This document shows positions 29,596 to 64,000 of a stretch of DNA of 64,000 nucleotides, piece after piece. The position numbers were made by a program, and so were the translations under genes. Positions within the stretch are counted from its first letter, which is position 1, and the number at the start of each line of letters is the position of its first letter. The stretch spans positions 247,531-311,530 of the forward strand of contig CAWKJU010000009.1 in the NCBI GenBank assembly GCA_963849955.1. Reading direction: 5' to 3'. The stretch is from an uncultured Cytophagales bacterium (GTDB lineage: Bacteria > Bacteroidota > Bacteroidia > Cytophagales > JAAEPT01). Under the pieces are notes generated by a model, which ran no database searches, was not told the origin of the DNA, and worked only from the letters and a program-made list of their open reading frames with translations.

Positions 29596-29601
29596 ATAAA
29601 T

Positions 29602-33442: not shown

Positions 33443-33497
33443 GGTTTATATTTAATCCATCGATTAATTAATCAACACTTCAAAGTTGAGGTGTAAG

Positions 33498-34138: not shown

Positions 34139-34141
34139 ACT

Positions 34142-44901: not shown

Positions 44902-44903
44902 GA

Positions 44904-46937: not shown

Positions 46938-46977
46938 TTTATCAAAAATAAATTCATTTTAAATATATTTATAACGC

Positions 46978-47925: not shown

Positions 47926-49739
47926 TCCAATTCAGCAATTTTTTTTTGATAATATTCTTTAAGCGACTTTTTTGGGTTGTTAGAAGTTACACTATGCAGC
48001 ATTTGTAAAAGTTTAGAACGTACTACATCATCACCAATAATTTCAATAAGTTTTAAAATTGATTCTTTTTCATCTACAATATTATTACTAGCCAATTGAT
48101 CACCCTCGTATATTGCTTTGTGAAATTTACTAATAACATCATTAATCTTAGCCTTAGCAAATTCACCAATTAACCCTCCTTCTAAAAAAAATGAGTCTTT
48201 ATAAAGTGAATGGATATTTGCTCCAAACGTTTCTGGTTTTTCAGTTCCAGATCTCCCTAAATAAATAACGTTATCGCCTGGAATATCCGATAACATGATT
48301 GGTGAGTGAGTAGTGAAGATCATATGTACATATTGATCAACACCTCCAAATATCCAATTTATCGATTTTAGAAAATCATTCATAAATCTCTTTTGCCATT
48401 GTGGATTCAGATATGTATCAGGTTCATCGATGAGTAAGATACATTTATTGTGAAATCGATGTGAATGAAGTTTCAGCCTACTATAAATGTTAAATAGTGC
48501 AATTTCACCACTACTTAAGCCTGACCATTTAAACTTCATTAAAGAAAATGTAGAAGCCCCACTCCTTGGTTTTCCATATTTATCAATCCAATCATTTGAT
48601 TCATCAAATAATTGGAAAGCTTTTTTAAGAAATTTTAAATTTTCCGCATTCACATGACCTTTCGAATCGAATAATTCAATTACAATCGCTGTATCATCTT
48701 TTTTTCTACCTATAAATGGTGAACCAGAAAGATCATTTTTAATAGAAAAATCGGACAATTCATGTATAAAAAGATTTCTAATTTCATCTAAAACACTAGT
48801 CGAAACATTGTGTTTTTTTAGTAAATACTTAAAATCTCTATCATAATCCTTTGATTCAAATGGAATCTTTTCACCATTATTAACATCTATTTTTTCTAAA
48901 TCAGATAAAACTTGATTTATATCTTTTTCTTTAAAAATTATTGCTGAAAAAAAAACCCAATTAAGTATGAATTTTAAAGAATTACTCAAATCACCTTTTA
49001 ATTTCCGTAGTCCATTTATAGTAAGTTGATTTAATCTTTTATACTGTTCTGGAGTTAGATTTTTACTCTTTGTTAGATAATTAAATGTGATTTCTATTGC
49101 TTTAGGGAGCTTAAATGGTGGACTCCCAAACAAATCTGACCCCTTCAGTTCAAAAACCTCTAATCCATTAATTAATTCAGCAATTTTATAATCAATTACC
49201 TTCATTGATCTCAAAAAATAATCAGTTGAAAGATTAAAATAATTAGGATATGAAGAGTCTTTAGATGTATGAAAATCAATACTCATTTCTCCATCAAAAA
49301 TATTAGACAAAAAAATCACAGAAAGATCATTATGCTTATTTACAAGATGTTTCTTTTCATCTTTCAAGTTGTTAATATTTGGTTCTAATTCCTTAAAATC
49401 AGAGTTTATATTTAGCTCTATAGATTCATGGTGATATACCTCTAACTTACCATTAACCTTACAAATAAAGACACTTACTTGTTCTGATGGAAATGTGAAT
49501 TCTGAAACAATAGCGTCTAAAACACTTGTTTTCCCACTGCCATTACTTCCGACTATAGCCGTAACTTTTGTTCTTTCACCAAAAATTTCAAAAGACTCTT
49601 TTAACGAAACAAGATTTAAATTAATTTTTAATCCATTATTGTCATCCACTGTACTTTTAAAAACATAATCAGATGAAAAATTTAATTCAAGCCCCTTTTT
49701 ATCATGAATATACTCACGCCATAAATACACTAACTCCAT
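47922..49739 (-). CDS. ptuA: AAA_15/AAA_21-type ABC-like ATPase (Septu PtuA-like)
   Basis: 605 aa. N-terminal Walker A is AIVGSNGSGKTSVLDAI. C-terminal Walker B/H-loop is CILLIDEPDTYLNP ... HMIFTTHSPIML. An HNH partner lies immediately downstream. Confidence 0.55.
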   Translation of the reverse strand: MELVYLWREYIHDKKGLELNFSSDYVFKSTVDDNNGLKINLNLVSLKESFEIFGERTKVTAIVGSNGSGKTSVLDAIVSEFTFPSEQVSVFICKVNGKLEVYHHESIELNINSDFKELEPNINNLKDEKKHLVNKHNDLSVIFLSNIFDGEMSIDFHTSKDSSYPNYFNLSTDYFLRSMKVIDYKIAELINGLEVFELKGSDLFGSPPFKLPKAIEITFNYLTKSKNLTPEQYKRLNQLTINGLRKLKGDLSNSLKFILNWVFFSAIIFKEKDINQVLSDLEKIDVNNGEKIPFESKDYDRDFKYLLKKHNVSTSVLDEIRNLFIHELSDFSIKNDLSGSPFIGRKKDDTAIVIELFDSKGHVNAENLKFLKKAFQLFDESNDWIDKYGKPRSGASTFSLMKFKWSGLSSGEIALFNIYSRLKLHSHRFHNKCILLIDEPDTYLNPQWQKRFMNDFLKSINWIFGGVDQYVHMIFTTHSPIMLSDIPGDNVIYLGRSGTEKPETFGANIHSLYKDSFFLEGGLIGEFAKAKINDVISKFHKAIYEGDQLASNNIVDEKESILKLIEIIGDDVVRSKLLQMLHSVTSNNPKKSLKEYYQKKIAELE

Positions 49740-49783
49740 ATTTCAAAATTTACAAAATCCATTTTTTACAAAACACCCTTAAA

Positions 49784-52780
49784 TCAACCACCACTAGCCG
49801 TCAACCGTTGGTACACTCTTTTCATTATTAATGCTTTTGCATCATCACCAAAGGCTTTGTCATCCATTATTTTGGCGAATATGCCTTGATTCTGTGCCAT
49901 GCGGTCTATTAGGGAATTCATTACTGCTTCTTCACCTATGTAGTTGAAGTTTTCTTCTGTGTTGGAGGTTGCTGCTTGCTGCAAGGTTTCGTTGGCTACA
50001 CAGTCGGCTATTATTTGGTCGAAGAACAACTTGTCACCTTCGTTGAATTCTGTTCCGAACTTCTTGTTTAATACTTCTACAATTTCTGATAGTAATGCTT
50101 GTTCTTCTTTTTTAGAACGAATACCTGCTTCATCCCCATTTTCTAAACCATACTCCCCTAGCGATTCTAAAAGGATGTTTTGCTCACTTATTTTCTGTAA
50201 TCGGTAATACTCTAATTCTACTTCGTCACCCAATTTAAAGCGGTCGTTGTCGCCTTTGCGTGGAAGTTTTTTGAGTAGAAAGCGACAATAGGTGAAAAAT
50301 TTCTCCAAGTCAACATCGCTGAATGGCATAATTTGACTTAAAAACGAGTAGGTTCTTGTAAACACTTGAATGGCGTGTTTTAAATCATCTTGTGTGATTA
50401 GCCCAGATAGATCTGATTCTTCTGGAAGTTGCAGAAACCGTTCAACAGCAGGGTCTATGTAAGCATTTAACTTGCCTTGGTCTGTTTTTGAAAGTAGCTT
50501 TTGTGACTTAAAAAAGACGTTACAAAAGTTGTCTATTTCTGTTTGCCATAGTATTTGAGCGCCTTCTATGGTGGTTTTTAAATCATATAACCTGTTGGGG
50601 TCAGTGGTTTCTTCTATGGAAGTTAACTCGTAATACGGTTGAAATGATTTTTGTATTTCTTCACCATCATTGGCAAAGTCTAATACGAAAGTATCTTCTT
50701 TCCCTCGTGTGGTTCTGTTGAGCCTCGAAAGGGTTTGCACTGCCAATACACCACTCAATTTTTTATCTACATACATAGTATGCAGTTTCGGTTGATCGAA
50801 GCCTGTTTGGTATTTACTGGCTACTATTAAAATCTGATAATCGGGAGAATCAAAATGTTTGGGTAGCTCACTTTCCTTTATTCCATTCACTTGTGCTTCG
50901 CTTACTCCTTCTGGGTAGATGTCTGTAATTAACTGACCTGAAAATGCAACGAGCGTGTTTATCTTGTATCCCTTTTCCTTGATGTATTTATCAAACTCTT
51001 CTTTGTAGCGTAGGGCGTGTAGTCGTGATGAACTCACCACCATTGCTTTTGCTTTCCCACCTATTTTCTTTGCAACTATTTGACGGAAATGCTCAATAAT
51101 CACTTCTGTTTTTTGTGCTAAGTTATGGGGGTGTAAAGACAAGAAACGTGCGATTGCTCTAGCTGCTTGTTTTTTATTGACGTTGGGGTCTTCTTCTATT
51201 TGTTTTGAAAGCTTAAAGTAAGAATTATAGGTCGTGTAGTTTTTTAGTACATCATGTATAAACCCTTCTTCTATGGCTTGTTTCATGGAATACAAATGAA
51301 ATGGTTTTGGTATTCCTGCTTCATCGGGTGTACCAAATACCTCCACTGTTTTTGGTTTTGGTGTAGCGGTAAAGGCGAAGAAACTGAGATTGTTTTGTTT
51401 GCCTCGTGCCAACATACTTGATCTTATTCCGTCTTCAGCATCTTCTTCTAAACCCGAATCTAATTCTTCTGCTTCAGCTTCTTCGAGTGTTTTGGCTGAA
51501 AGCACTTCTTTCATCTTTTTGGTTGCTTCACCGCCTTGGCTCGAATGCGCTTCATCTATAATGATGGCGTAGTTACATGCTTTTAATTCACCTATTTTCT
51601 CTAAAATGAAGGGGAATTTTTGAAGGGTGGTGATGATGATGTTTGATCCTGCGGTAATGGCATCGGCTAACTGTTGGGACGACTTATCAATCTTCACTAC
51701 TACACCGTCTTTATGCTCAAATTGGTAGATGGTGTTTTGTAGCTGTGAGTCTAACACCCGTCTATCGGTAATAACGATAACTGAATCGAATACCCGTTCG
51801 TCTTTCTTGTTGTGAAGCGAGGATAGTCGGTAGGATAACCAAGCAATTGAATTGGATTTACCTGAACCTGCTGAATGTTGAACTAAATAGTTTTTGCCTG
51901 TGCCACTTTCTCGTGCATCTTTGGTTGCTTTTCGAACCACTTCCATTTGATGATAACGTGGGAAAATGATAACATCTTTTTCCGCATCTATGTGTACAAA
52001 CTTTCCTACGATGTCTAATAGGGAATCCTTTGTCCAAACACCTGCCTGTCCGTTAGGCTGGTACTCCCAAAGGTAGGATGTGCGGTATCCGTTTTTGTTG
52101 GGTGGGTTTCCTTTTCCGTTGTTAAAACCTTGATTAAAAGGCAAATAAAATGTGTTTTTACCTTGCAACCGAGTACTCATGTAACATTGGTCGGTATCTA
52201 CTGCAAAGTGTACTAAGGCTCTTTTCTTAAATTTAAAAATGGCTTCTGATGGTTCACGGTCGTACACATACTGCTTTTTTGCGTTGTTCACGTCTTGACC
52301 GCTAAACTGATTTTTTAACTCAATGGTACTAATCGGCAAACCATTTAACACCAACACGATATCTAATGAATTCCTTCCTTCTTTTTGATAATAAAGCTGC
52401 CTTACAACCTTTAAATCATTTTGCTCATACAAGTCAAATGCTTCTGGGTTTAGATTACTCTCAGGTACAAAAAATGCCATTTTGAACTTTACACCATAAT
52501 CGGTGAAGCCATAACGAATCACATCCAACACCCCACGACTATCCAATTCTTTAATGAGGCGTTTTAGTACCTTTTCTTCTACCGCTGTTTTATGAATACC
52601 TTCAAGTTTAGCCCATTCCTTTGGCTGAGAAGCTTTTAAAAAATTAGTGATGTAACTAGGAAACAAACCCAGTTCAGCATCAAAATCAGCAGACAACCCT
52701 TTTGTGTAGCCACCTGACTCTAAAAGTGCTGCTTCTATGTTTTCTTCAAAAGTTAATTCGGTATGTATTCCAGTAGCCAT
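49784..52780 (-). CDS. hsdR: type I restriction endonuclease R subunit (HsdR)
   Basis: 998 aa with an HsdR_N-type start (MATGIHTELTFEENIEAALL), SF2 helicase motif I QHSAGSGKSNS, motif II AIIIDEAHSSQ, and length typical of HsdR. Confidence 0.85.
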   Translation of the reverse strand: MATGIHTELTFEENIEAALLESGGYTKGLSADFDAELGLFPSYITNFLKASQPKEWAKLEGIHKTAVEEKVLKRLIKELDSRGVLDVIRYGFTDYGVKFKMAFFVPESNLNPEAFDLYEQNDLKVVRQLYYQKEGRNSLDIVLVLNGLPISTIELKNQFSGQDVNNAKKQYVYDREPSEAIFKFKKRALVHFAVDTDQCYMSTRLQGKNTFYLPFNQGFNNGKGNPPNKNGYRTSYLWEYQPNGQAGVWTKDSLLDIVGKFVHIDAEKDVIIFPRYHQMEVVRKATKDARESGTGKNYLVQHSAGSGKSNSIAWLSYRLSSLHNKKDERVFDSVIVITDRRVLDSQLQNTIYQFEHKDGVVVKIDKSSQQLADAITAGSNIIITTLQKFPFILEKIGELKACNYAIIIDEAHSSQGGEATKKMKEVLSAKTLEEAEAEELDSGLEEDAEDGIRSSMLARGKQNNLSFFAFTATPKPKTVEVFGTPDEAGIPKPFHLYSMKQAIEEGFIHDVLKNYTTYNSYFKLSKQIEEDPNVNKKQAARAIARFLSLHPHNLAQKTEVIIEHFRQIVAKKIGGKAKAMVVSSSRLHALRYKEEFDKYIKEKGYKINTLVAFSGQLITDIYPEGVSEAQVNGIKESELPKHFDSPDYQILIVASKYQTGFDQPKLHTMYVDKKLSGVLAVQTLSRLNRTTRGKEDTFVLDFANDGEEIQKSFQPYYELTSIEETTDPNRLYDLKTTIEGAQILWQTEIDNFCNVFFKSQKLLSKTDQGKLNAYIDPAVERFLQLPEESDLSGLITQDDLKHAIQVFTRTYSFLSQIMPFSDVDLEKFFTYCRFLLKKLPRKGDNDRFKLGDEVELEYYRLQKISEQNILLESLGEYGLENGDEAGIRSKKEEQALLSEIVEVLNKKFGTEFNEGDKLFFDQIIADCVANETLQQAATSNTEENFNYIGEEAVMNSLIDRMAQNQGIFAKIMDDKAFGDDAKALIMKRVYQRLTASGG

Positions 52781-52839
52781 AATTTTATATTCTATTCTAA
52801 AAACATTACTCTGTTCCCTTTTAGCGTCATTTTATTAAA

Positions 52840-54855
52840 TCACCAATCGTGTTTATTTAATTTCAAGGTGTTTAATGCCTTCATTTTTTTTGCTGTTTCA
52901 ATAAGCAAGTCGAAGTATTTATATTCAGTTGGAACTTGTAACCTACCAGTACTTTTAATATCGTTTATTTGACAAAACAAAGAATTTCCATGTAAGCCAC
53001 TTGGCACAAGCCGATAGTTAATTAATAAATCTTCAGTTTGGTATTGATAAAACACATCATTTAAATTTGCTACAAGTCTATGTTGATTGCTATCTAAAAC
53101 AACTAATAAAAAACCTATTAAACCAAACCCAGTTGAATCATCGTCAAATGTTTCCCAGTAAAATTCTTTACATTCTTGAAAGGCAGAAATTAAGTCATCT
53201 AAATTTTCATAAAATTGAAGTAAAAACTCAAAAATAAACAAGACTTCTAATTCCTTGCCATTTACATGATGGGACACCCCTAGGTTTGGGGCATAATTAT
53301 TTCGTTTAAACTTTAAATTAAAAATTTTCTTGAACCGCCTATAAGATAGTTTGTTTGCTTTTACTAGAGCTATTAAAATGTAGGCGATAGATTTTGGTAG
53401 TACATTTTCTTTGGCGTGTAAATCAAAAAACTTGTCTCCTTCGTTATCGTGTTCAATGTTTTTTATCAAATCCCAAATTTGACTTTGAATTGCTTCTGAA
53501 TTGTCAAAATCAAAAATTTTAATCGAATAAAACTTATCTAAATAGCCTGAGTAATCTACATCAGAACCGTATTTGTTGTGAAATATTTGTCTTACATTTT
53601 GTTTGTCAAACACTAAGATGACTTTATCGAAACCAAATTTATTTTTCATTTCAGAACCTTCTCTTTCATCAAAATGTGCTGATAAAACATTGAGAATTCT
53701 AAAGACGTGTTCAGGGTCAATTCGATCTAAATCATCCAGTATAAGTACAGTTTCCTTCTTTTTACCTTTTTTATCTTTAACCTTTAGTTGATCTACAAAT
53801 TTCACAATCAATTGGGTGTAAAAGTTCTCTTCGAAAATAGAGCCTTTACTTTCAGTAAATGCTTCTAAAAAAGTTATTACTTCTGATTTTTCATCAACCT
53901 GTGGTGCTTTATGGTATTTTTCAAATTCTTTAGCAACTTCTTGTAAATCCTTTATAATGGCATGAACATCCTTACCGATTTTTGGTATTAATCTTACAAA
54001 AGGATGAAGTAGGCTTTGCCAGTTATTAATAGCAAAAAAGCTTGCGGAAAGTGTTTTAGCTATCTCTGAAAATTCAAACTTTAAATCTTTTTTTAAGAGC
54101 TCAAATAAGATGTCATATTTTATTAATTCGAAGATGTCTTTATTGTCTGCAACTGAATAGTTTACAGGAAACAAATGAATAACATCATATGCTTTAGTAC
54201 CCTCAAAAAATTCTTTTAAAAAATAAGTTTTACCACAACCAAAAGGTGCTGAAAAAATAATGCGTTCATTAAAAGGTAAGATCAAATGAGAATGAAACTC
54301 AACGTGTGGATATTCTATTGATAACCTTATTCCAAATTCCTTTATTTTATGATGATAGGAGTCAACATCAAAGGGTGTTAAATCAGTAGTTGAAGCCCCA
54401 TCATGAAATGGATGCCTTGGGTGTCCATTTCTAGTAAGTTCACCTAGTTTTAAAAAATTGAAATCTTCTATTGGGAAACAGGTTAATACTTTTTCCAAGC
54501 ATTCTTTTAAATAGGGACGTTCCTCAATGGAATTTCCCCAAGCACTACAAATATCTTTATAGATTCCCTTTTCTAGTTCTATTTTAACGTTGTGGAGGTT
54601 GGTGGTAATTTCTTCTTTCGCTAAAGTTTCGGGTAATAAACCCGTTCGGGGAGTGAGAACAGGGCAAACATTGATTATCAGCCAACCATCATAACTATTT
54701 TTTTGAACAATCTCTTTCACTTTTGTAGTGAATACATCATCATGGTCTTTTGCTAATGTGTTTGGCATCAAACCAATAAACACCAATGGGTTAGTACCTT
54801 CTTCACTTAATAAATATCTGCTATTTCCTTGTGTGCTTATACTTCGTTCAGCCAA
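52840..54855 (-). CDS. KAP-family P-loop NTPase nested between hsdS and hsdR
   Basis: 671 aa. Walker A is SAPFGCGKTYFLKEFF, and the KAP-type Walker B is VLILDDLDRIDPEHVFRILNVL. Long helical insertions are typical of KAP NTPases. It overlaps the hsdS start by 8 nt. Confidence 0.55.
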   Translation of the reverse strand: MAERSISTQGNSRYLLSEEGTNPLVFIGLMPNTLAKDHDDVFTTKVKEIVQKNSYDGWLIINVCPVLTPRTGLLPETLAKEEITTNLHNVKIELEKGIYKDICSAWGNSIEERPYLKECLEKVLTCFPIEDFNFLKLGELTRNGHPRHPFHDGASTTDLTPFDVDSYHHKIKEFGIRLSIEYPHVEFHSHLILPFNERIIFSAPFGCGKTYFLKEFFEGTKAYDVIHLFPVNYSVADNKDIFELIKYDILFELLKKDLKFEFSEIAKTLSASFFAINNWQSLLHPFVRLIPKIGKDVHAIIKDLQEVAKEFEKYHKAPQVDEKSEVITFLEAFTESKGSIFEENFYTQLIVKFVDQLKVKDKKGKKKETVLILDDLDRIDPEHVFRILNVLSAHFDEREGSEMKNKFGFDKVILVFDKQNVRQIFHNKYGSDVDYSGYLDKFYSIKIFDFDNSEAIQSQIWDLIKNIEHDNEGDKFFDLHAKENVLPKSIAYILIALVKANKLSYRRFKKIFNLKFKRNNYAPNLGVSHHVNGKELEVLFIFEFLLQFYENLDDLISAFQECKEFYWETFDDDSTGFGLIGFLLVVLDSNQHRLVANLNDVFYQYQTEDLLINYRLVPSGLHGNSLFCQINDIKSTGRLQVPTEYKYFDLLIETAKKMKALNTLKLNKHDW

Positions 54856-56074
54856 TTAGCACCTCCTCTCTTACATCTACCTTACCCAACACCACTTCCG
54901 ATATTAAAGCTGTTTTGTATTCTTTTAATAACTCGATTTCTTGTTCTGTTTTGGAGATTTTGTTCTCGAATTCCTGTTTAAATGACTTAATGAATCGTCC
55001 TATTTTTTTAGATACATCAATATCGGGAATTGGAATTTGTAGGTTTTTTATCTTTTCAACAGCTAATCCAGGTTGAGCAGAAGCTTGTGAGTATTGATTT
55101 AGATTCATTGATGCCAATAATTCACCCAACCATATCCAATCGTGCCCTAGTAGTTGTTCACAAACAACTGCGTGTTCGGATGCCCAAAACTCTCCTTGTG
55201 CATAATTAATATTGCCACAAAGTGCTCCTTGCCTTCCTATAAGGATATGATCTCCTGAATGTGTATATTCATCAAAGTAACCTCTCAATCCATTACCTCC
55301 ATAAACTGGGTATCTACCCGATTCATTTATTTGTTCTGAAACAATATTGTTTCCACTTTTCATAGAACAAACAAACTTTAACTTTCCAACCTCCCAATGC
55401 TCAGGAATATCACCCAACCACTCGATGCCACTGTCTTTCATAGGCACATTAGGGTCTAAACCTTTGGTTACCGCTTGGTTTATAGTAGCGGTGCGTTCTT
55501 CTTTATAGAGGGTGATGAGTTGTTTTTTCTGTGCTATAAGGGTGTCTATCTCTTCCGTTTTTCGGTCGAGGTAGTTGGCTATTGTTGTTTGTTCTTCTAA
55601 TGTGCCAATTGCAATTTGGAAATTTTGAAACATTGGTCTTCTCAGAGAGTCTACTGTAGACTTTGCAGATAGTTTTTTGACTTCTAAAACAAAGTTCTGT
55701 TTTAAGTAGTAATAAAGAAATTTACCTATTACGCCATCAAAATCACTCATACGATAAACTCTTTGATGATAATCAAATTTACCATTGAGGTAATGCCAAA
55801 CTTTACAAACTCCAACACCATCTCCTGCTGTTAAAATCGCTTCACCATCAAATGTGTAGCTCGAAATTCTTTCTATGGTTTGCGATCTGACAAAAAATGG
55901 ATACTCCCCATCATCTTCTGCATTTTCAGTATCCTTATCACCTGTACCTATATCACATAGGTACTTCATTCTTACAATCTCCCAATGCTCAGGAATTTCA
56001 CCAATCCATTCGATACCGCTGTGTTTGTATGTTGAGTAAGGTTTCATGTTCGGTAATGTTTGTTTTGTTAACAC
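54848..56074 (-). CDS. hsdS: type I restriction-modification specificity subunit (HsdS), two target-recognition domains
   Basis: 408 aa with duplicated conserved spacer regions (YSTYKHSGIEWIGEIPEHWEI and MKDSGIEWLGDIPEHWEV) flanking two variable TRDs. Confidence 0.8.
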   Translation of the reverse strand: MLTKQTLPNMKPYSTYKHSGIEWIGEIPEHWEIVRMKYLCDIGTGDKDTENAEDDGEYPFFVRSQTIERISSYTFDGEAILTAGDGVGVCKVWHYLNGKFDYHQRVYRMSDFDGVIGKFLYYYLKQNFVLEVKKLSAKSTVDSLRRPMFQNFQIAIGTLEEQTTIANYLDRKTEEIDTLIAQKKQLITLYKEERTATINQAVTKGLDPNVPMKDSGIEWLGDIPEHWEVGKLKFVCSMKSGNNIVSEQINESGRYPVYGGNGLRGYFDEYTHSGDHILIGRQGALCGNINYAQGEFWASEHAVVCEQLLGHDWIWLGELLASMNLNQYSQASAQPGLAVEKIKNLQIPIPDIDVSKKIGRFIKSFKQEFENKISKTEQEIELLKEYKTALISEVVLGKVDVREEVLIG

Positions 56075-56137
56075 GTGTACTTTAATATGTTAACAAAATT
56101 GATTTTTGTTAACACGTTATTGTTTCATGTTAACGTT

Positions 56138-57235
56138 TTACTCTTTTTTAAACTTATGTAGTTCGGGTGCATTGTAGAGGTAATCGAACAGCACGGAATT
56201 TATATAATAGTTTTCTTTTCCTATTTTGTGCAGGTTGAGCAAGCCAATACCTACCAGTTGGTCTAAATATTTAGAGGCTGTTTGTCGAGTAACGCCTAAG
56301 TCTTGTACCAAAAAGTCTATTTTGGTATAAGGATGTTTAAAGAGGTTGTTAATTAAGTCCTGAGAATATATTTTAGGCAGCTCGGTTCTTATTTTCTGCT
56401 TAAACTCCAGCATTAGTTTTTTTATTTCTCTAATAATGTTGGTGGTTTGTAGCGAGGTTTGCTCTACAGCTTCTAGAATAAAGAAAATCCACTTTTGCCA
56501 ATCTTGTTGCTCTCTAGTTTCTTGTAATAATGCGTAATAGCTACTCTTGTTGTGGTTAATGTAACGGCTAAGGTAAAGAATAGGCAGTTTTAATAAACCT
56601 GCTTTCACGAGGTATAAAATATTGATTATGCGCCCTGTTCTACCATTACCATCATAAAACGGGTGAATGCTTTCAAACTGATGGTGAATAATTGCCATTT
56701 TCACCAAAGGGTCGAGGTCAGATAAGCTTTCGTCATTCATGAAAGCTTCCAAATTGTCCATTAAACTAACGATTTCATCATGGGTTTGAGGTGGTGTATA
56801 GACCACTTCTCCCGTTTGGTCGTTTTTTAAGGTAGTGCCTGGTAACTTTCTAAAGCCAGCTTTATTTTCTTCTAAAATCCCTTGAATTTCAATTATCTGG
56901 TTGTTCGTAATCAGTTTTAGGTCTTTTACTTTTTTAAAGCCACCTTTTAAAGCATCGGCATAGTTGTGTACTTCTTTGGCTGCGGTACTGGTAAAGTGCT
57001 GCGCTATTACATCACTACTAAAAAGTTCATCGTGTGTGGTTATAATGTTTTCAATAGCAGAACTGTCTTTAGCTTCTTGTAGCGAGAGTGTATTTAAAAT
57101 AATTTGCTCGTTGGGAATGGTTTCCGCAACACCATTTAACTCCGCCAACGCCTTGTGAGCAAGGGTAAGTTTCTTTAAAACCTGCTTTGTTTCTACATCG
57201 TGAGAAAAAGGAAGAGTTGGTATGGTGTATTGCAT
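56138..57235 (-). CDS. Fic-family protein (AMPylase/adenylyltransferase-type) nested in the type I R-M operon
   Basis: 365 aa with Fic motif HPFYDGNGRTGRIIN and a C-terminal wHTH-like tail. Confidence 0.8.
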   Translation of the reverse strand: MQYTIPTLPFSHDVETKQVLKKLTLAHKALAELNGVAETIPNEQIILNTLSLQEAKDSSAIENIITTHDELFSSDVIAQHFTSTAAKEVHNYADALKGGFKKVKDLKLITNNQIIEIQGILEENKAGFRKLPGTTLKNDQTGEVVYTPPQTHDEIVSLMDNLEAFMNDESLSDLDPLVKMAIIHHQFESIHPFYDGNGRTGRIINILYLVKAGLLKLPILYLSRYINHNKSSYYALLQETREQQDWQKWIFFILEAVEQTSLQTTNIIREIKKLMLEFKQKIRTELPKIYSQDLINNLFKHPYTKIDFLVQDLGVTRQTASKYLDQLVGIGLLNLHKIGKENYYINSVLFDYLYNAPELHKFKKE

Positions 57236-57316
57236 AACTAAGTGTGTATCTCTAAATTAAGCCAAAATATTTTTAATGCAGTCTAATGCGCAGGAATTTC
57301 ACTTTTACATTCGATG

Positions 57317-58444
57317 TCACTGTATAGGTTGTTGGGGGTTTCTTTCTTTGAAAAACTTAAAGACTTTCATGAAAATTGTTTTCAACTCAGTTTCATTAAT
57401 GGTTGTAGCTATAAATTCGGCTAAATTTTCAACACTGTCTTTATCTAAGTCCTTTTCAACTGTTACTAAATGATACCATCTTGCATTCTTCTCAGGTACT
57501 TTCGCATTCAGATATTCATCATAATAGGAAGTTGTAAATAAAGCTTTTATTTCTTCGTGTTTTTTTAACCCCTCATGATTTAACTCTATAATCAGTTGAA
57601 TTTTGGGTTTAGTTTGATTGATGTACAAGGGAGAAATAGTAAAAAAAACCTGAGGATTTGCTTCATCCCTATAATACGTCAAGTTCCATTTGTATTTATG
57701 GTCATTTACAAACTTCACCTCTGGTATTTCAATAAGTCGCCAAGCCCTGTTGATTTCATCCCAAATATGTTTTTCTAACTGAGCTTTTAGCTTCTCTACT
57801 TTTTGAATGAAACCAAAATTATCAGTATAAAAATCTAAGTACTCGCCAATTTCGTGAGCCATATTAAAGTTTTTTAAGTTCGTGGTAAATTGCTTTAAGT
57901 GAAATAAACTTTCATGACTGATAGAAAAGAGCGTTGTTCCACTCATTTCCCAAACTTTATCTATCCATTGATTATGAGTAATATTCACAAAACGATTATC
58001 CCTTGTGTCTAAAGGTTGTATGGTGAGTACAACCCCTTTCTTAAATTCATCAGCTAATTTAAATTCAGTATAATAGTCGTTTAAATCATTATTCAAATGA
58101 TGATACATTTTGTTCTCTATAATAATTGTATTGTATGATTCATCAGATGAACCTTGTATCACAACATCAATTCGCATACCTGAAGCAGTATAATATTCTC
58201 GTGTAATTTCGGGAGCTGCAAAAACAAACGAAGTCCCAATTATTTCTTGTAAAGCATCCAAAAACAATGATTCCAAACCATGCTTCTCATTTGGATCTAA
58301 AAAATAGGCATAGAAGTTAGAAATAACATTTTCGTAATGCGGAAACCTTGCAATATCAAAAAATGTGGTCTCCCATTCCTTTATATCCGGAACACCTTTG
58401 TTGGCAAATTTCTGTAACTCGATAAGATCTATGGACTCTGTCAT
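57317..58444 (-). CDS. PD-(D/E)XK-like nuclease superfamily protein nested between hsdM and fic
   Basis: 375 aa. The N-terminal FFDIARFPHYENVISNFYAYFLDP block resembles the PDDEXK_4-type proteins common in R-M loci. It overlaps the hsdM stop by 4 nt. Confidence 0.45.
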   Translation of the reverse strand: MTESIDLIELQKFANKGVPDIKEWETTFFDIARFPHYENVISNFYAYFLDPNEKHGLESLFLDALQEIIGTSFVFAAPEITREYYTASGMRIDVVIQGSSDESYNTIIIENKMYHHLNNDLNDYYTEFKLADEFKKGVVLTIQPLDTRDNRFVNITHNQWIDKVWEMSGTTLFSISHESLFHLKQFTTNLKNFNMAHEIGEYLDFYTDNFGFIQKVEKLKAQLEKHIWDEINRAWRLIEIPEVKFVNDHKYKWNLTYYRDEANPQVFFTISPLYINQTKPKIQLIIELNHEGLKKHEEIKALFTTSYYDEYLNAKVPEKNARWYHLVTVEKDLDKDSVENLAEFIATTINETELKTIFMKVFKFFKERNPQQPIQ

Positions 58445-60156
58445 GCCAACACCTTTTTAATCCCGTCAAAAGTTGCTTCCTCCAAAGCCAAAATATCGGC
58501 TTTAATTTCTGCTAAAGAGCGTAGTGGTTTGTACTCGTAGAAGTATTTGGTGAAATTAATTTCATAACCTACTAATGATTTTTTCTCGTCTACCCAGGCA
58601 TCAGGCACATGAGGCAATACTTCACGTTTGATGTATGTTGAAATATCTTCTTTCAACGGAATGCTTTCAGTATCTCGTAATTTGGAGTCAGGTTTTGGTT
58701 TGCCGTTTTTATCTGTTACTATTTCACCCTTTTTGTTGCGTTCAGGTCGCTCAACAGTTACTTTGTTGTAGCCAAAATCTTCGTTATCAAAAATCTTACA
58801 GCAGTCACTTGGCTCAAAAGCCCCGTATATTTCGGTTATTTCTTTGATGTGTTCATCAGAAAGCTCGTGTCGTTTACTACCCAATGACTTAGACATCTTC
58901 TTAAAAAACTTCACCCCATTAATCAACTGTACTTTGCCTTTTCGTTCTTTGGCTTTGCGGTTATTAATTACCCATATATACGTGCTAATTCCCGTATTAT
59001 AAAACAGTTGATCGGGCAAAGCGATAATGCTTTCTAGTAAATCGTTTTCAATAATCCATTGGCGAATCGAGCTTTCGTTTTTGTTTTTACTTGGAGAACC
59101 AGAAAACAAAGGAGAGCCATTAAACACGATTGCCAAGCGTGAGCCTTGTGCATCTTGCTTCATTTTAGAAATCAAGCTCATTAAAAACAAAAACGAGCCA
59201 TCACTCTTCGCTGGCAACCCAGCACCGAAACGACCACCGTGTCCTAACTCATCGTGTTCTGCCTGTACTTTTTTTGCTATTTTATCCCACTTCACCCCAA
59301 ACGGTGGGTTGGTAATGAGGTAATCGAACTGTTTGCCTTCCAATTGGTCTTCAGAAATGGAGTTGCCTTTCTTAATGTTAGTAGCATTTTGTCCCTTAAT
59401 CAACATATCACTTTTGCAGATAGCGTAAGACTCAGGGTTGAGTTCTTGCCCAAACACTTCCAGTCGGGCATCGGGGTTTAATTCATGTAAATATTCCTCT
59501 GCCACAGAAAGCATCCCTCCTGTACCTGCACAGCAATCGTAAATCGTTTTTACAATGCCTTTTTTGGTGAGAATATCTCGGTCATTTAAAAACAAGATGT
59601 TGACCATCAAGCGAATGACCTCACGAGGTGTAAAGTGTTCCCCAGCGGTTTCGTTAGAGATTTCAGCAAACTTTCTGATTAACTCTTCAAACATATACCC
59701 CATCTCCATTGAAGAGATTGTTTCAGGATGAAGGTCAATTTCTTGAAAGCGTTTCATCACCATAAACAACAAGTTGTTGTCGTCTAGTTTGGTTATTTGA
59801 TTTTCAAATTCGAACTGCTCAATGATCTCACGAGCATCTTCCGAAAATCCGTTGATGTAGTTACGAAGGTTTGAAGCAATGTTGTTGGGATCAGCTACAA
59901 GCTTATCAAAATCAAACTTGCTGCGGTTATGGAATTTATAGCCTGCAACCTTATTGAGAATAGGGTCAACATTATCAATTGTTAAAGTCGCTGCGGTTTT
60001 TAACACTTTTTCTTTCGTAGCTTCCAGTACACAATCCAAGCGTCTAAGTACCGTAAGCGGAAGAATTACTTTACCATAATCAGACTGTTTGTAATCACCC
60101 CTTAACAAGTCAGCCACAGACCAAATGAAGTTGGCAGAATCTTTAAAATTTTTCAT
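58441..60156 (-). CDS. hsdM: type I restriction-modification N6-adenine DNA methyltransferase (HsdM)
   Basis: 571 aa with the HsdM_N region, SAM motif I (DCCAGTGGML) and catalytic motif IV (DYLITNPPFG). Confidence 0.85.
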   Translation of the reverse strand: MKNFKDSANFIWSVADLLRGDYKQSDYGKVILPLTVLRRLDCVLEATKEKVLKTAATLTIDNVDPILNKVAGYKFHNRSKFDFDKLVADPNNIASNLRNYINGFSEDAREIIEQFEFENQITKLDDNNLLFMVMKRFQEIDLHPETISSMEMGYMFEELIRKFAEISNETAGEHFTPREVIRLMVNILFLNDRDILTKKGIVKTIYDCCAGTGGMLSVAEEYLHELNPDARLEVFGQELNPESYAICKSDMLIKGQNATNIKKGNSISEDQLEGKQFDYLITNPPFGVKWDKIAKKVQAEHDELGHGGRFGAGLPAKSDGSFLFLMSLISKMKQDAQGSRLAIVFNGSPLFSGSPSKNKNESSIRQWIIENDLLESIIALPDQLFYNTGISTYIWVINNRKAKERKGKVQLINGVKFFKKMSKSLGSKRHELSDEHIKEITEIYGAFEPSDCCKIFDNEDFGYNKVTVERPERNKKGEIVTDKNGKPKPDSKLRDTESIPLKEDISTYIKREVLPHVPDAWVDEKKSLVGYEINFTKYFYEYKPLRSLAEIKADILALEEATFDGIKKVLA

Positions 60157-60392
60157 CGGCTACAAGTTAGAAACTTTCTCCTAAAAGAAGTTAGAGAAAT
60201 GTAGGCAAGTGGTGAAAAAAGATTCTACCTAATGAATATGAAGGTATTTTTTTATTGAGATAAAAATAAACTTACATTGAAGTAAGTAACTGTTAGACTG
60301 AGGACAATTGGAGCTTGAGACATTAAATAGGGTTCTTTTTTTGTACACACACTCTTTATTTTTTGAGTTAATTTACGACCTTGTAAGTACAC

Positions 60393-60623
60393 ATGAAATT
60401 GAAAGCACTACACACAGCAAGTACACTAGACATATTTTCGGCTAATACCGTTACTAGCCTACATTTGCCCTATATTCCTTCGGGAATAAGTGCTGGTTTT
60501 CCATCTCCTGCGGATGATTTTTTAGACTTATCCATCGACCTCAATCAAGAACTGATTAAACATCCTTCTTTTACTTTCTACGGAAGAGTGAAAGGAGAGT
60601 CAATGAAAGGATTTAGGGATTAA
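60393..60623 (+). pseudogene. truncated S24 peptidase fragment (UmuD/LexA-like C-terminal domain start)
   Basis: 76-aa ORF containing the S24 motifs SAGFPSPADDFLDLSIDLNQELIKHPSFTFYGRVKGESM (AGFPSPA...G(D/E)SM). It stops ~60 aa short of a full domain. No umuC follows. Confidence 0.45.
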
Positions 60624-60912
60624 CTAAACTCTCACGAAGGCAGAAATCCTTTCTGAAAAATAGGTTTGACAAGTGAAGTCTCTCAACATTTTAGCTTAAC
60701 TTAATTACACATGAAACAGATGACTCGATTTCTTATTACTGTATGGACGTTAGCAACAACTTTCACTTTTGCACAACTGGTAGAAGACCAGTCGTATTTA
60801 GACCAAGATTTTGTAAAATTTAAAGCTCAACTATCTTTGGTTAAGAAGTAAAACCAAAACTATCCAAACTTTATTATTAAAAAACATAACTTGCCGACCA
60901 TGAACATAATTC

Positions 60913-61368
60913 ATGTTTGACTTACCTAATAACCCCATGGACATTCCTGAAAAAATAATCTACAAGTACAACACTAAAAAAGCACTTACTTATGTACTCG
61001 TTGGGTTAGGACTTACTTTGGGGTCTATTATTGTCCCGGTAGTAAGAATTCTTGTGTTCATTGTTGGTCTTATGGTAACCTTTACTGGTCTAGGGGCTTT
61101 AGTCCGCAGAAAACCGCAACTTTTATTGGATAAAGAAGGGTTATATCTTGGCTTTAAGATTAAAAGGAAAATACCCTGGCGATTTATAGATGCAACTAGT
61201 GTAAAAAAAGAAAAAGTAGATGATCGGCTTGTGTGGTATTTAAGAATACGTACTAAGTCGGTAAAAGGCGGGGTTATCGGATATAATAATTTTGAAGCAA
61301 ATCTCGACTTATTAAAAATTGATTCTTATGTACTAAAGGAACAACTGAACCATTTTAGAGGAATTTAA
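60913..61368 (+). CDS. hypothetical membrane protein (two TM helices + PH-like C-terminal region)
   Basis: 151 aa with two N-terminal hydrophobic helices (LTYVLVGLGLTLGSIIVPVV, ILVFIVGLMVTFTGLGALV). Confidence 0.35.
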   Translation: MFDLPNNPMDIPEKIIYKYNTKKALTYVLVGLGLTLGSIIVPVVRILVFIVGLMVTFTGLGALVRRKPQLLLDKEGLYLGFKIKRKIPWRFIDATSVKKEKVDDRLVWYLRIRTKSVKGGVIGYNNFEANLDLLKIDSYVLKEQLNHFRGI

Positions 61369-62001
61369 GACCAGCCTATTTTCAATCTCCTTTAACACCG
61401 ACACATACAACTTACTAATCGTTGCTTTGGAAGCCCCATTTTTATTGATATAAACCAACAGATGCTGATCATGGTACTCAATACATAGTTTCTCAAAGTC
61501 TTTTGCTAGCCGCCTAACTGTAGCTCCCACATGTTGTTCAAACGTATCTTTTGAAGGCGTTTTTAAAAAGAGTGTAGTAGATAATCCACCAAGTTTCACA
61601 AACCCTGCAGACTCCAAGTCGGGTTTGCTGATTCGTCCCAATGAATCCAGTGATTCGATCACAAAGGGTGGCCAGTTACTATCAGGTAAACCAAAAATAA
61701 GTACCATACGTGTGTACTTGATATCCATATTGCCAGTGCTTGCATACACCCAATCAAGTGCATAATCACGGGACTCACCTCTACTTTTTAGATAGCAGTT
61801 TTCCATGTCTACGACAGGCCCTTTTGCTTCTAAAAACGTCTTTGGGAAAAATGATTGCAGCTGCTCGTTAAAATCTTCTTTAAAACTTTTAAATCCCAAA
61901 TCGGTAAAAAGCTGATCTAGTTTTTCAGTTCTTCGTCTTCTAAGACCGATACCTATCACTGCAAACAATCCGAGGAGGACAAGAATTAAAGCTTTTACCA
62001 T
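61333..62001 (-). CDS. hypothetical membrane-anchored protein
   Basis: 222-aa ORF with an N-terminal TM/signal (MVKALILVLLGLFAVIGIGL) and no motif recognised. Confidence 0.35.
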   Translation of the reverse strand: MVKALILVLLGLFAVIGIGLRRRRTEKLDQLFTDLGFKSFKEDFNEQLQSFFPKTFLEAKGPVVDMENCYLKSRGESRDYALDWVYASTGNMDIKYTRMVLIFGLPDSNWPPFVIESLDSLGRISKPDLESAGFVKLGGLSTTLFLKTPSKDTFEQHVGATVRRLAKDFEKLCIEYHDQHLLVYINKNGASKATISKLYVSVLKEIENRLVLNSSKMVQLFL

Positions 62002-62151
62002 GACCTAAAGTTAGCCAATTCGTAAAATTTTACTTTCTAATATAAAACTTTTGATCGGTTGGTTTCTAATTATGTGATTTTGTAAAAAATTGGAGATAAA
62101 TATTATTAGAACTAAAACCTCCATTTGATTTCCTAATTTAATTCCAATATT

Positions 62152-62493
62152 CTAATTCGACCAAACCGCATACCCTTTTCTTCTCAATTCAAGGGTTAAC
62201 TGCTTTTCCATTTTTAGAGCTTCTTCTCGGGTTTTGTATGGTGGTAAATGGCCGTATAAACTCGAACGTAAATAAGCACCATACTTCTCGACAATGGAGG
62301 AGGAAATCTTATGCCCTTTTTTACTTACCGCACTCGTTTTATGCTGTAAAAACCGCTCTTGAGGTGTTTTACTCGTCATACCTACATACACACATTCCAT
62401 AGCGCCATTGTATTGGGGATTTGCTATCCTAAATCGGGTATTTTCAGAATACACTTTGCGTTTAAGCTCGATTACGTAAACTGTATAGGGCAT
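62152..62493 (-). CDS. GIY-YIG nuclease-domain protein (113 aa)
   Basis: YTVYVIELK ... CVYVGMTSKTPQERFLQHK fits a GIY-YIG core (TVY...YVG, R, E/H). Confidence 0.45.
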   Translation of the reverse strand: MPYTVYVIELKRKVYSENTRFRIANPQYNGAMECVYVGMTSKTPQERFLQHKTSAVSKKGHKISSSIVEKYGAYLRSSLYGHLPPYKTREEALKMEKQLTLELRRKGYAVWSN

Positions 62494-62845
62494 AGTAGAT
62501 TTGAGTTGAAACGAGTACGATTTTTATAGTTCTTCAATAAATACGCTGGGTTAATAATAACTCTTAATAATCAAAAAAGGTTATCTAACTGCTTTGAATG
62601 TATTATGGTAGATGATTTTTCGTAAAAAGAATAATTATGTTAATGAATACATTGAAGTCAATCTTCACCTTCCCCAGTTTAAAAATTGCCTAAACTTTAC
62701 TAACTCGTCTCCGTCTCAATGGGATTCCTGATCAACTCCACTTTGCTACGTTGTCTGGAATGACGGTTTTGGGAGTTGGGTTTACGAGTATACCTGATGC
62801 ATTTGTAAAAAAAACAATCCCTAAAAATGAAATAGGCTTACCCCT

Positions 62846-62910
62846 TCCCGATAGCTATCGGGAGAAATAAGCCTTTGCTTTCATGAGCCCCCTCCCGATA
62901 GCTATCGGGA
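62846..62910. repeat. two copies of perfect 18-bp palindrome TCCCGATAGCTATCGGGA (62846-62863, 62893-62910) plus partial copies (gaagctatcgggac, tatcgggac)
   Basis: Exact self-complementary 18-mer. The first copy sits inside the loop of a longer hairpin (aggctta...taagcct). In the authentic locus that hairpin is a simple terminator (ggcgtaca-tttttgg-tgtacgcc). Confidence 0.75.
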
Positions 62911-62950
62911 CGGAAGCTATCGGGACTATCGGGACGGATTCGAACCTAAT

Positions 62951-63232
62951 TCAATATTTACTAAGTAACTTCTCACTAATCTCGGGGTATTTAACCAAAT
63001 TCTCTAAATACTTCCTCGATTTCATTCTCTTGATATGAGCTTCTATTTTTCGTGCTTGAATTCTATCAACACAATTTATCTGGAAAAACAATACCCAATC
63101 ATCTGCTTTACCAGTATGTGATTTCTCATAAAAAGAGGTGTTATGCTGATTTATCCGTTCGAATAAATCTTCGCATTCGCCAATATAAAATTTATCTAAC
63201 TGCTTTGAATAAAGTATGTATACCTGATGCAT
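62951..63232 (-). CDS. GIY-YIG nuclease mini-protein (93 aa), copy in unit A
   Basis: MHQVYILYSKQLDKFYIGECEDLFERINQHN carries GIY-YIG motifs (VYILYS / FYIGE, R, E...N). It is 87% identical to the unit-B copy. Confidence 0.6.
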   Translation of the reverse strand: MHQVYILYSKQLDKFYIGECEDLFERINQHNTSFYEKSHTGKADDWVLFFQINCVDRIQARKIEAHIKRMKSRKYLENLVKYPEISEKLLSKY

Positions 63233-63276
63233 TTGTTAAAAAAAATTACTCCTTAAAAACAAAATAGGCGTACATT

Positions 63277-63341
63277 TCCCGATAGCTATCGGGAGGTGTA
63301 CGCCTTTGCTTTTGTGAGCCCCCTCCCGATAGCTATCGGGA
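63277..63341. repeat. two further copies of the 18-bp palindrome TCCCGATAGCTATCGGGA (63277-63294, 63324-63341)
   Basis: Same palindrome as in unit A. The first copy is inserted into the loop of the terminator-like hairpin ggcgtaca...tgtacgcc. The second replaces the acceptor-proximal part of a tRNA-Thr 3' fragment (…cgggacggattcgaaccc). Confidence 0.75.
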
Positions 63342-63372
63342 CGGAAGCTATCGGGACGGATTCGAACCCAAT

Positions 63373-63654
63373 TCAATATTTACTAAGTAATTTCTCACTG
63401 ATTTCTGGGTATTTAACTAAATTTTCTAAATACTTCCTAGATTTCATCTTTTTAATATGAGCTTCTATTTTTCGTGGTTGTATTCTATCAACACAATTTA
63501 TTTGGAAAAACAATGACCAATCATTGACTTTACTGGTATATGATTTTTCGTAAAAAGATGTGTTATGCTGATTTATCCGTTCGAATAAATCTTCGCATTC
63601 GCCAATATAAAATTTATCTAACTGCTTTGAATAAAGTATGTATACCTGATGCAT
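63373..63654 (-). CDS. GIY-YIG nuclease mini-protein (93 aa), copy in unit B
   Basis: Paralog of 62951-63232 with the same GIY-YIG motifs. It lies immediately downstream (on the minus strand) of tRNA-Thr. Confidence 0.6.
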   Translation of the reverse strand: MHQVYILYSKQLDKFYIGECEDLFERINQHNTSFYEKSYTSKVNDWSLFFQINCVDRIQPRKIEAHIKKMKSRKYLENLVKYPEISEKLLSKY

Positions 63655-63722
63655 TTGTTAAAAAAATTACTCCTTAAAAACAAAATAGGCGTACATTTTT
63701 GGTGTACGCCTTTGCTTTTGTG

Positions 63723-63796
63723 AGCCCCCAGTCGGATTCGAACCAACGACCTACTGATTACAAGTCAGTTGCTCTGGCCAACTGAGCTATGGAGGC
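63723..63796 (-). tRNA. tRNA-Thr (anticodon TGT)
   Basis: Hand-folded cloverleaf: GCCTCCA TA GCTC AGTTGGCCA GAGC A ACTGA CTTGTAA TCAGT AGGTC GTTGG TTCGAAT CCGAC TGGGGGC T. The anticodon stem is perfect with loop CUUGUAA. CCA is not encoded. A terminator hairpin (ggcgtacacc-aaaaa-tgtacgcc + T-run on the minus strand) follows. Confidence 0.75.
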
Positions 63797-63883
63797 CTCT
63801 GTTCTATTTGAACGGCTGCAAATGTAGTGGTCTATTTATAGATTTGCAAACCTACAAACAGCTTTTTTGAAGATATTTTGCAC

Positions 63884-64000
63884 TTAATATTCAAAGTTAT
63901 TGATTAACTGCATTTTACGCTTCAACTCTTTGAGCTGCTTTTCTGCTACCGCTACTTTTTGGTCTACTTCTACCCGTAATTTGTCTGCATTCTTCGAGCG
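63884..64000 (-). CDS. 3' end of a minus-strand gene continuing beyond the window (coiled-coil-like C-terminus)
   Basis: The frame is open from the window edge to TAA at 63884-63886 (…RSKNADKLRVEVDQKVAVAEKQLKELKRKMQLINNFEY*). Identity is unknown. Confidence 0.3.
   Translation of the reverse strand, partial: RSKNADKLRVEVDQKVAVAEKQLKELKRKMQLINNFEY

Follow-up and report, generated by a model that had tools for sequence, protein, structure and literature searches.

GIY-YIG mini-genes and an 18-bp palindrome at tRNA genes of Bacteroidota: a candidate selfish cassette stacked beside tRNA-Thr

Free-standing homing endonucleases of the GIY-YIG type are known from phages, with SegB of phage T4, which lies in a tRNA gene cluster, and I-TevI as examples. 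Palindromic mini-elements are known from Rickettsia, and certain insertion sequences target the loops of palindromes, as IS1397 does in bacterial interspersed mosaic elements (BIMEs). Here we describe a stretch of 64,000 nt (the window) from an uncultured Cytophagales bacterium (JAAEPT01; contig CAWKJU010000009.1), in which small GIY-YIG genes form an array beside a tRNA-Thr gene, together with fragments of this tRNA and copies of a palindrome that we call P18. P18 (TCCCGATAGCTATCGGGA) is a perfect palindrome of 18 bp, consisting of two abutting inverted halves of 9 nt. The same architecture recurs at tRNA genes across the Bacteroidota. We tentatively suggest, at somewhat less than an even chance, that it represents a selfish cassette found throughout this phylum, in which an Slx1/UPF0213-like nuclease resides in tRNA units and P18 is its cognate mini-element, the array of the window being a local stack. 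In the open-access literature, we found no description of the combination of gene, tRNA and palindrome, nor of the palindrome sequence itself, and the survey of the GIY-YIG superfamily does not mention this combination (PMC1564403).

The recurrence of the cassette was examined at the best 80 genome loci of Bacteroidota encoding relatives of the window proteins (L001-L080), on which the following counts are based. A tRNA or transfer-messenger RNA (tmRNA) gene on the same strand was located within 150 nt of the GIY-YIG gene in 61 loci and within 600 nt in 69, while the nearest tRNA was on the opposite strand in none. At L036 and L069 the gene adjoins a tRNA-Met with a group I intron, which was missed by ARAGORN, and with these the total becomes 71/80. 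These two tRNA-Met genes are broken after the anticodon by the intron (L036 3414-3739 and L069 3300-3630; Rfam Intron_gpI, 76.5 and 63.7 bits), so that one tRNA gene would carry two different selfish insertions. The loci lacking an adjacent tRNA mostly lie at contig ends or are internal array units, yet they contain tRNA fragments. The target genes include those for Asn-GTT, Leu-CAA, Leu-TAA, Leu-GAG, Met, Phe, Thr, Val-TAC and Val-GAC, and also the tmRNA gene. A partial duplicate of the neighbouring tRNA was present at almost all of the loci. An earlier note, made from the window sequence, had held that GIY-YIG genes at random locations without duplicated tRNA fragments would speak against a tRNA-targeting selfish element; the counts above show the opposite pattern.

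Two layouts of the cassette were observed. In the 3' layout, the order is intact tRNA, hairpin, gene and tRNA fragment. In the 5' layout, the promoter is followed by the fragment, the gene and then the intact tRNA, which begins 4-10 nt past the stop codon of the gene. About half of the loci have the 5'-side layout with an interrupted D-loop, and the specificity for the tRNA 3' end and its T-arm that had been proposed from the window therefore does not hold. The broader proposal of a tRNA-targeting selfish element agrees with the tRNA adjacency; it was too narrow in that both tRNA ends and the tmRNA are occupied, and P18 had been overlooked.

At 73 of the 80 loci, a P18 copy with up to three mismatches lies no more than 120 nt from the gene, and in 56 of 58 it is placed on the side of the gene away from the intact tRNA. 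Near the gene, it is always placed within a partial or complete duplicate of the adjoining tRNA. We compared 64 distinct junctions, in which the site of interruption is the D-loop region (28), the T-arm or acceptor (31), or the anticodon or variable region (5). Exactly three nucleotides of the tRNA are replaced by P18 in 53 of these junctions and four or five in the rest; a replacement of 0-2 nt was never seen. The replaced triplet is always purine-N-pyrimidine (GTT, AAT, ACT, ATT, GTC and others). On each side of P18, the cassettes carry 6-14 nt or more of tRNA sequence, and the fragment agrees in sequence with the tRNA of its own locus. At L055, L070 and L079, P18 interrupts the D-loop as well as the T-loop of whole pseudo-tRNAs, and in the pseudo-tRNAs of L054 and L080 the stretch between two P18 sites has been deleted. 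Tandem arrays also occur elsewhere, at L015 (at least seven units of 429 bp, with 0-1 differences), L067 and L074. In a rough protein tree, the clades correspond partly to tRNA type, and the tRNA types are interleaved, so that the cassette has switched tRNA species several times. The clade of the Asn 5' type has the same junction throughout, across genera of Flavobacteriaceae. Many contigs end 100-800 nt from the cassette, which suggests that the cassette breaks assemblies.

In the window, the features of the array are read on the minus strand and are as follows.

63722-63796, minus strand: intact tRNA-Thr(TGT) (ARAGORN; Rfam RF00005, 70.6 bits)
63687-63711, minus strand: h1, a terminator-like hairpin 3' of tRNA-Thr, AGGCGTACACCAAAAATGTACGCCT and a run of T (terminator scan, 9 pairs; DNA fold)
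63373-63654, minus strand: GIY-YIG mini-gene A, intact, 93 aa (list of open reading frames, ORFs; Pfam PF01541, 37.7 bits)
63315-63368, minus strand: 3' piece of tRNA-Thr in unit A, consisting of GGTTCGAATCCG, a partial palindrome copy, P18 and GGGGGCTCA (tRNA alignment)
63324-63341: P18a, the palindrome TCCCGATAGCTATCGGGA within tRNA fragment A (pattern search)
63266-63305, minus strand: h2, a copy of h1 with P18b (63277-63294) in place of about three A of the loop (alignment; terminator scan, 18-pair stem)
62951-63232, minus strand: GIY-YIG mini-gene B, intact, 93 aa (ORF list; Pfam PF01541, 40.8 bits)
62884-62947, minus strand: 3' piece of tRNA-Thr in unit B, with P18c (62893-62910) and two partial palindrome copies (tRNA alignment, pattern search)
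62834-62874, minus strand: h3, a diverged copy of h1 with P18d (62846-62863) in the loop (alignment, pattern search)
62788-62802, minus strand: third mini-gene, truncated to its start ATGCATCAGGTATAC, the first 15 nt (repeat families; also present in the orthologous locus L247)
62576-62693, minus strand: older, rearranged mini-gene remnant (repeat families D2 and D5, 68-84% identity; also found in L247 by blastn)

The intact tRNA-Thr is the anchor of the array and probably supplies its promoter, and TAnnTTTG-like boxes that may serve as promoter elements are present upstream of it. It differs by one base from the tRNA-Thr of L018, a metagenome-assembled genome of Cyclobacteriaceae. Tandem Repeats Finder described the array at 62788-63698 with a period of 422, 2.1 copies, 89% matches and a score of 1444, and the repeat families of the array are spaced by 422-431 nt. 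The tRNA piece of unit A begins four bases past the stop codon of mini-gene A. In this piece, GGTTCGAATCCG is a copy of the T-loop and 3' T-stem of tRNA-Thr, and GGGGGCTCA is a copy of its 3' acceptor strand with the discriminator. In both tRNA fragments of the array, P18 stands in place of the ACT that joins the T-arm to the acceptor strand, and 15-24 nt of partial P18 copies lie beside it. The P18 core has four copies in the window, compared with 0.01 expected by chance; all four belong to the array, and the remaining 62 kb contain no copy. The alignment of the hairpins indicated that the loop of h1 has no P18. An Rfam search of positions 60000-64000 at E <= 1 detected only tRNA, and no other relevant family was found in the whole window.

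The decay of the units grows with the distance from tRNA-Thr, and this gradient fits the repeated insertion beside the tRNA that the earlier note had proposed. Repeat finding, ORFs and Pfam bear out its description of two intact units of about 422-431 bp with a truncated third unit and an older remnant by tRNA-Thr. It was also right that both 93-aa copies are intact, although their identity is 92% rather than 87%. Of its statements on the tRNA fragment of each unit, the preserved T-arm stands, but the acceptor side is not altered, as GGTTCGAATCCG and GGGGGCTCA are both intact and only the ACT between them has been replaced. The repetition of the terminator hairpin is seen in h2 and h3; the palindrome in their loops, which h1 lacks, had escaped notice.

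Both window proteins exceeded the Pfam GIY-YIG cut-off of 22.6 bits. Seven of the 93 residues distinguish protein A from protein B, and their genes show 15 synonymous and 7 non-synonymous codon differences, which indicates that both have been kept under purifying selection. In an alignment of 33 sequences, the catalytic residues Y5, Y16, G18, R26, H30 and E64 are invariant. The C-terminal motif HIKKMKSRKY..L..YPE is almost invariant and forms two extra helices in the AlphaFold model (pLDDT 92.6), in which these helices follow the GIY-YIG core. The best fold matches of the model are UPF0213 protein BH0048, Slx1 and the catalytic domain of I-TevI, and the nearest solved structures by sequence and fold are the UPF0213 proteins 1zg2 (E 2.6e-5) and 1ywl, and Slx1. 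The score against NCBIfam TIGR01453 was 20-22 bits, below its cut-off of 56. From sequence and model, the 93-aa protein is a bare predicted nuclease domain of the Slx1/UPF0213 (URI, structure-specific) branch. The DNA-binding module of classical homing endonucleases is absent from it, which lends no support to the homing enzyme that the window alone had suggested.

The relatives, Bacteroidota proteins of about 94 aa, carry no annotation beyond "GIY-YIG nuclease family protein". Among 1.84 billion representative proteins, a profile search at E <= 1e-10 gave 1,020 clusters at 50% identity. Many members are called at 120-135 aa in the databases, with the ORF prolonged upstream through the tRNA (for example L129). 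A scan for the gene family found no member in 2.9 million viral contigs.

P18 is also a repeat in its own right. Exact-match scans found it in more than 120 metagenome stretches and in 46 viral contigs. P18 occurs in these viral contigs while the gene family was absent from the viral set, by which an action in trans is implied, and phage P18 cannot rely on a phage-borne gene. A BLAST search of doubled P18 against cultured phages gave chance matches only. In the loci that carry the gene, P18 has a density of 1.81 per kb up to 150 nt from it and of 0.072 per kb beyond that distance. Only 10% of P18 sites fall in ORFs of 150 aa or more, compared with 63% of random control positions. P18 was located at the apex of perfect hairpins in about 8% of cases vs 0.6%, and near tRNA genes in 8% vs 2%, and it is also enriched beside partial copies of itself. 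An energy-based hairpin test was uninformative because P18 itself nucleates pairing. Apart from this GIY-YIG family, no recurrent gene family near P18 looked non-phage.

The mobility of P18 is seen in pairs of filled and empty alleles. The all-against-all comparison of the fetched loci revealed the pair L176 and L151, in which AGC was replaced. Within the body of the tmRNA, P18 at L029 3543-3560 replaced ACG relative to L031, and the tmRNA of L029 with P18 inside still scores normally (Rfam 115.8 bits). In viral pairs (L212 and L226 vs L244 and L229), GGGTTA was replaced. Inside the window, the filled hairpins h2 and h3 and the empty h1 provide a paralogous case. A pattern scan for the empty allele of one viral P18 site found none. 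These events are replacements without target-site duplication, and the net change of length in the filled and empty pairs is 15 or 12 nt, by which the reading frame is kept. P18 inside ORFs is read in frame as PDSYR(D/E) or PIAIG at L098, L103, L110, L142, L174, L210/L214 and L211/L241.

The stem of P18 covaries. Twelve cells were altered on both sides vs 3.5 +/- 1.5 in shuffled data, and none of 500 shuffles reached 12. Changes are tolerated chiefly in the central four bases, and G-U pairs are no more favoured than other mismatches. The symmetric variants of P18 follow protein clade or taxon, with TTCC..GGAA in L025 and L067, and CCCC..GGGG in L036/L069 and L061/L070. Modules without the gene were also observed. 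In these, a 5' tRNA fragment whose D-loop is interrupted by P18 precedes an intact tRNA (Met, Ala, Phe or Val) by 16-60 nt. One such case is found in a 16S-23S spacer (L143, 322-339), where the fragment is a 5' piece of tRNA-Ala, again with P18 in the D-loop; the intact tRNA-Ala follows 54 nt downstream, and no GIY-YIG gene is present.

A close relative of the window organism offers a comparison for the array. Its locus L247 is the orthologous tRNA-Thr locus, with 92-96% DNA identity to the window. Of the features of the array, it has the tRNA-Thr, one hairpin free of P18, the start of the truncated gene and also the old remnant; no intact mini-gene, tRNA fragment or P18 was found in this orthologous locus. 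The absence of an intact unit agrees with the copy-number variation among relatives for which the earlier note had proposed to look. In the hairpin of L247, the left arm corresponds to h1 and the right arm resembles h3, so that the junction falls within the loop, exactly at the position of P18d. Such a hairpin would arise if the DNA broke at P18 and the repeats on either side then annealed, as judged from this single case. The divergence between A and B is about 9%, which is about equal to the difference between the window and L247 over the flanking 1.7 kb downstream; it suggests that a loss in L247 is at least as likely as a gain in the window. An inverted-repeat motif (GTCATTCC...GGAATC) is located at 62700-62760 on the minus strand, where it separates the old remnant from the third, truncated unit, and is also present in L247 at about 7860-7920.

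Several other features of the window were recorded. Just downstream of the array, an ORF of 113 aa (62152-62493, minus strand) has a weak GIY-YIG match (Pfam 23.1 bits). It was considered as a member of the array and rejected, as it is kept in L247 and L248 without array, tRNA or P18; its neighbours there are of defence type, namely AbiEii, a MazG-like gene and an SLFN-like helicase. From about 44000 to 60200, a set resembling a defence island lies beside the tRNA-Thr, including HsdM of a type I restriction-modification system, PDDEXK_4 and an AAA_5/McrB-like ATPase, and at the corresponding position L247 has a different set of defence genes (AbiE, HipA and an SLFN-like helicase). At 32842-33230 on the minus strand, there are three atypical tRNA-like genes (Rfam tRNA 52.5, 38.0 and 36.1 bits), one of which is called 'tRNA-???' by ARAGORN. 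An extra T-arm-like piece lies beside this cluster, and the neighbours at 27570-35872 are SPFH/Band_7, RlaP, RtcB and a WYL-WCX regulator. Together, the cluster and its neighbours resemble an operon for RNA repair by RtcB, whose RNAs would be tRNA-like or Y-RNA-like.

What was observed is the architecture, its recurrence across the phylum, and the mobility and covariation of P18; the account that follows is our proposal. The selfish cassette that we favour would consist of three parts: a stand-alone GIY-YIG gene of about 93 aa, its place in a tRNA or tmRNA unit, and the tRNA duplicate split by P18 on the far side. The cassette has the orientation of the tRNA, so the gene would ride on the tRNA promoter. 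We presume that the nuclease, probably as a dimer, acts on the tips of hairpins or cruciforms and on P18. The tRNA gene would be cut in its D-loop or T-loop, and an occupied allele would serve as the template for repair of the break. Of the two ends, the one joined to the outer flank would pair with the P18-bearing fragment up to P18, and the other with the intact tRNA. All that lies between the paired ends would then be copied in, including the gene, P18 and the replacement part of the tRNA, and the tRNA would stay functional. Because of this pairing, P18 would mark the exact place of the lost triplet in the outer-flank copy, in the 5' and 3' layouts alike. The restored tRNA would still be a target, so that units could stack with the youngest next to the tRNA, either by repeated rounds or by unequal exchange. 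The order A, B, truncated C and old remnant, with h1 still free of P18, may be read as such a stacking gradient.

In this mechanism, the tRNA-lodged nuclease gene would be the autonomous part and P18 the non-autonomous one. P18 would be inserted in trans by the same enzyme, with replacement of a purine-N-pyrimidine triplet and without target-site duplication, and its landing sites would be the loops of tRNA copies and terminators, P18 itself and other intergenic sites. GIY-YIG enzymes typically leave 3' overhangs, and such overhangs are trimmed and not filled in. The symmetric purine-N-pyrimidine target and the loss of three nucleotides would fit a dimer making staggered cuts that leave 3' overhangs, which are then trimmed.

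A variant to which we give only a slim chance is that the tRNA fragment split by P18, as RNA or single-stranded DNA, guides the nuclease dimer and that the P18 hairpin serves as a handle. The tRNA arms would pair with the target around three unpaired purine-N-pyrimidine nucleotides, which set the cut. Such a guide would explain the locus specificity of a protein without a DNA-binding domain, the tRNA flanks of P18, the exact replacement of three nucleotides and the match between fragment and tRNA. If it is true, this would be nucleic-acid-guided GIY-YIG homing, and every dispersed P18 would be a self-homing element of 18 bp with its own flanks as guide.

Several points weigh against the selfish cassette. 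Its nuclease activity, cut site and transposition are predictions from sequence and model, and its tie between protein and P18 is one of association. As the tRNA stays intact in the occupied allele, a nuclease that cuts tRNA loops would still find its target there, and this allele would have no immunity. The mechanism offers no route by which the cassette enters a new tRNA species. Among about 185 sampled P18 sites, about 5 have a GIY-YIG gene of this family within 600 nt and about 97% have none. Outside tRNAs and perfect hairpins, the hairpin preference of P18 is weak. Given the P18 modules without a gene, tRNA duplication may proceed without the gene. Finally, the Asn 5'-type cassette looks vertically inherited, which fits a domesticated gene of the kind associated with repetitive extragenic palindromes (REPs), the REP-associated tyrosine transposases (RAYTs), as well as it fits active homing.

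This last point leads to the most serious rival, which overlaps with the selfish cassette and which we nevertheless consider rather unlikely. A domesticated, vertically inherited nuclease with dispersed palindromes, as in REP and RAYT, would stay at tRNA loci and only mobilise or maintain P18, and the tRNA fragments and arrays would be by-products of P18 insertion, palindrome breakage and unequal recombination. The identical Asn 5'-type junction over many genera of Flavobacteriaceae is in agreement with this, and so are the dispersal of P18, mostly with no gene nearby, and the gene-less modules of tRNA fragment and P18. The P18-to-P18 deletions in the pseudo-tRNAs of L054 and L080 and the deletion junction of L247, which falls on a P18 site of the window, also support palindrome breakage as a source of these structures. 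However, 10 or more tRNA species and the tmRNA are occupied and interleaved in the protein tree, which implies that the gene relocated repeatedly, and the decay gradient of the window together with the arrays of identical units suggests that the gene-containing unit itself was copied. The other rivals fit the data less well. Plain tandem duplication by unequal crossing-over of a gene cotranscribed with the tRNA would account for head-to-tail units with long homology; P18 would then be an unrelated REP-like hairpin of the host, for instance one that terminates transcription or stabilises mRNA, and it would build up in DNA that is dispensable, as might be expected of a general intergenic repeat that lengthens terminator stems. 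We regard it as improbable, because P18 is 25 to 140 times denser by the gene than elsewhere in the same loci, lies opposite the intact tRNA in 56/58 loci, recurs at 73/80 loci phylum-wide with a precise replacement of three nucleotides in the tRNA copy, and has variants that follow the protein clade.

The remaining two rivals place the action at the RNA or at an integrase. The protein might cleave or process tRNA or pre-tRNA, with the P18-split fragment as a decoy, antitoxin or processing signal in the same transcript; the gene is always co-oriented with the tRNA and abuts it, and the reported fusion of an Slx1-like GIY-YIG domain of prokaryotes with a TrmH-like methyltransferase of the tRNA D-loop lends this some support (PMC1564403). 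The insertion alleles of P18, however, arose at the level of DNA, and at many sites that have no relation to tRNA, and the lack of a preference for G-U pairs in P18 also does not point to RNA. To our knowledge, all characterised GIY-YIG enzymes are DNA nucleases, and we hold action at the RNA level to be highly unlikely. Partial tRNA duplicates are a known mark of integrated elements (PMC9897764), and a variable defence island borders the tRNA-Thr, so the duplicates could be attachment-site scars of integrase islands with the GIY-YIG genes as cargo. This is scarcely credible for a unit of about 425 bp with no integrase, for a layout that is the same at tRNA 5' ends and D-loops, and for a duplicate that is split by P18; it was rejected for the window, where no distal uninterrupted copy of the tRNA-Thr 3' end was found within the 64 kb.

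If the selfish cassette is true, an abundant and unnamed family of small GIY-YIG proteins with about 1,000 clusters would gain a biological role, and a second enzyme class would stand beside the HUH transposases for long-lived intragenomic replicators of the REP/RAYT type. It would also add a mobile palindrome of 18 bp with an unusual signature, the replacement of three nucleotides without duplication, and we know of no smaller mobile element. The cassettes yield pseudo-tRNA fragments that are open to mis-annotation as tRNA genes. The system would allow a tractable test of how a structure-specific nuclease can spread a selfish element among essential tRNA genes and still leave these genes functional.

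Compared with known systems, the closest likeness is found in several places. As in the REP/REPIN and RAYT system, a short intergenic palindrome with a covarying stem is dispersed in the genome, a small gene in one to a few copies is flanked by it, part of the gene family looks vertical, and the action is apparently in trans. The enzyme of the cassette is a GIY-YIG protein, whereas RAYT is an HUH tyrosine transposase of the IS200/IS605 type; moreover, the cassette gene is placed in a tRNA unit with a tRNA duplicate, and the repeat is a single perfect palindrome of 18 bp that replaces three nucleotides. The GIY-YIG homing endonucleases of phages share the domain, the position of the gene beside conserved genes including those for tRNA, and perhaps a presence that varies among relatives. 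Unlike classical homing endonucleases, the cassette protein has 93 aa and no DNA-binding domain, its gene is chromosomal, the occupied allele keeps the target, and a palindrome is part of the unit. By sequence and fold, UPF0213/YhbQ-like proteins and Slx1 are nearest, with a bare URI-type domain, and the cassette family is a distinct subfamily with its C-terminal motif; we know of no reported tie of the UPF0213, YhbQ or Slx1 proteins to tRNA genes or a palindrome.

The tRNA-targeting integrative elements resemble the cassette in that they restore an intact tRNA at one end of the insertion and leave part of a tRNA at the opposite end, but the cassette has about 0.4 kb, no integrase, both 5' and 3' layouts, and a duplicate split by P18. 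Like the Rickettsia palindromic elements and IS1397, P18 is associated with structured RNA genes as a palindromic mini-element, is rarely found in frame in ORFs and has some preference for hairpin tips. P18 differs from these in its far smaller size (18 bp), the absence of target duplication, the replacement of three nucleotides and its candidate GIY-YIG partner. It also differs from transposons of the miniature inverted-repeat transposable element (MITE) type, as it makes no target-site duplication and three nucleotides of the target are lost. Taken together, the cassette appears as a cross of REP/RAYT and free-standing homing endonucleases with an outcome like that of tRNA-targeting elements, and it is a member of none of these groups.

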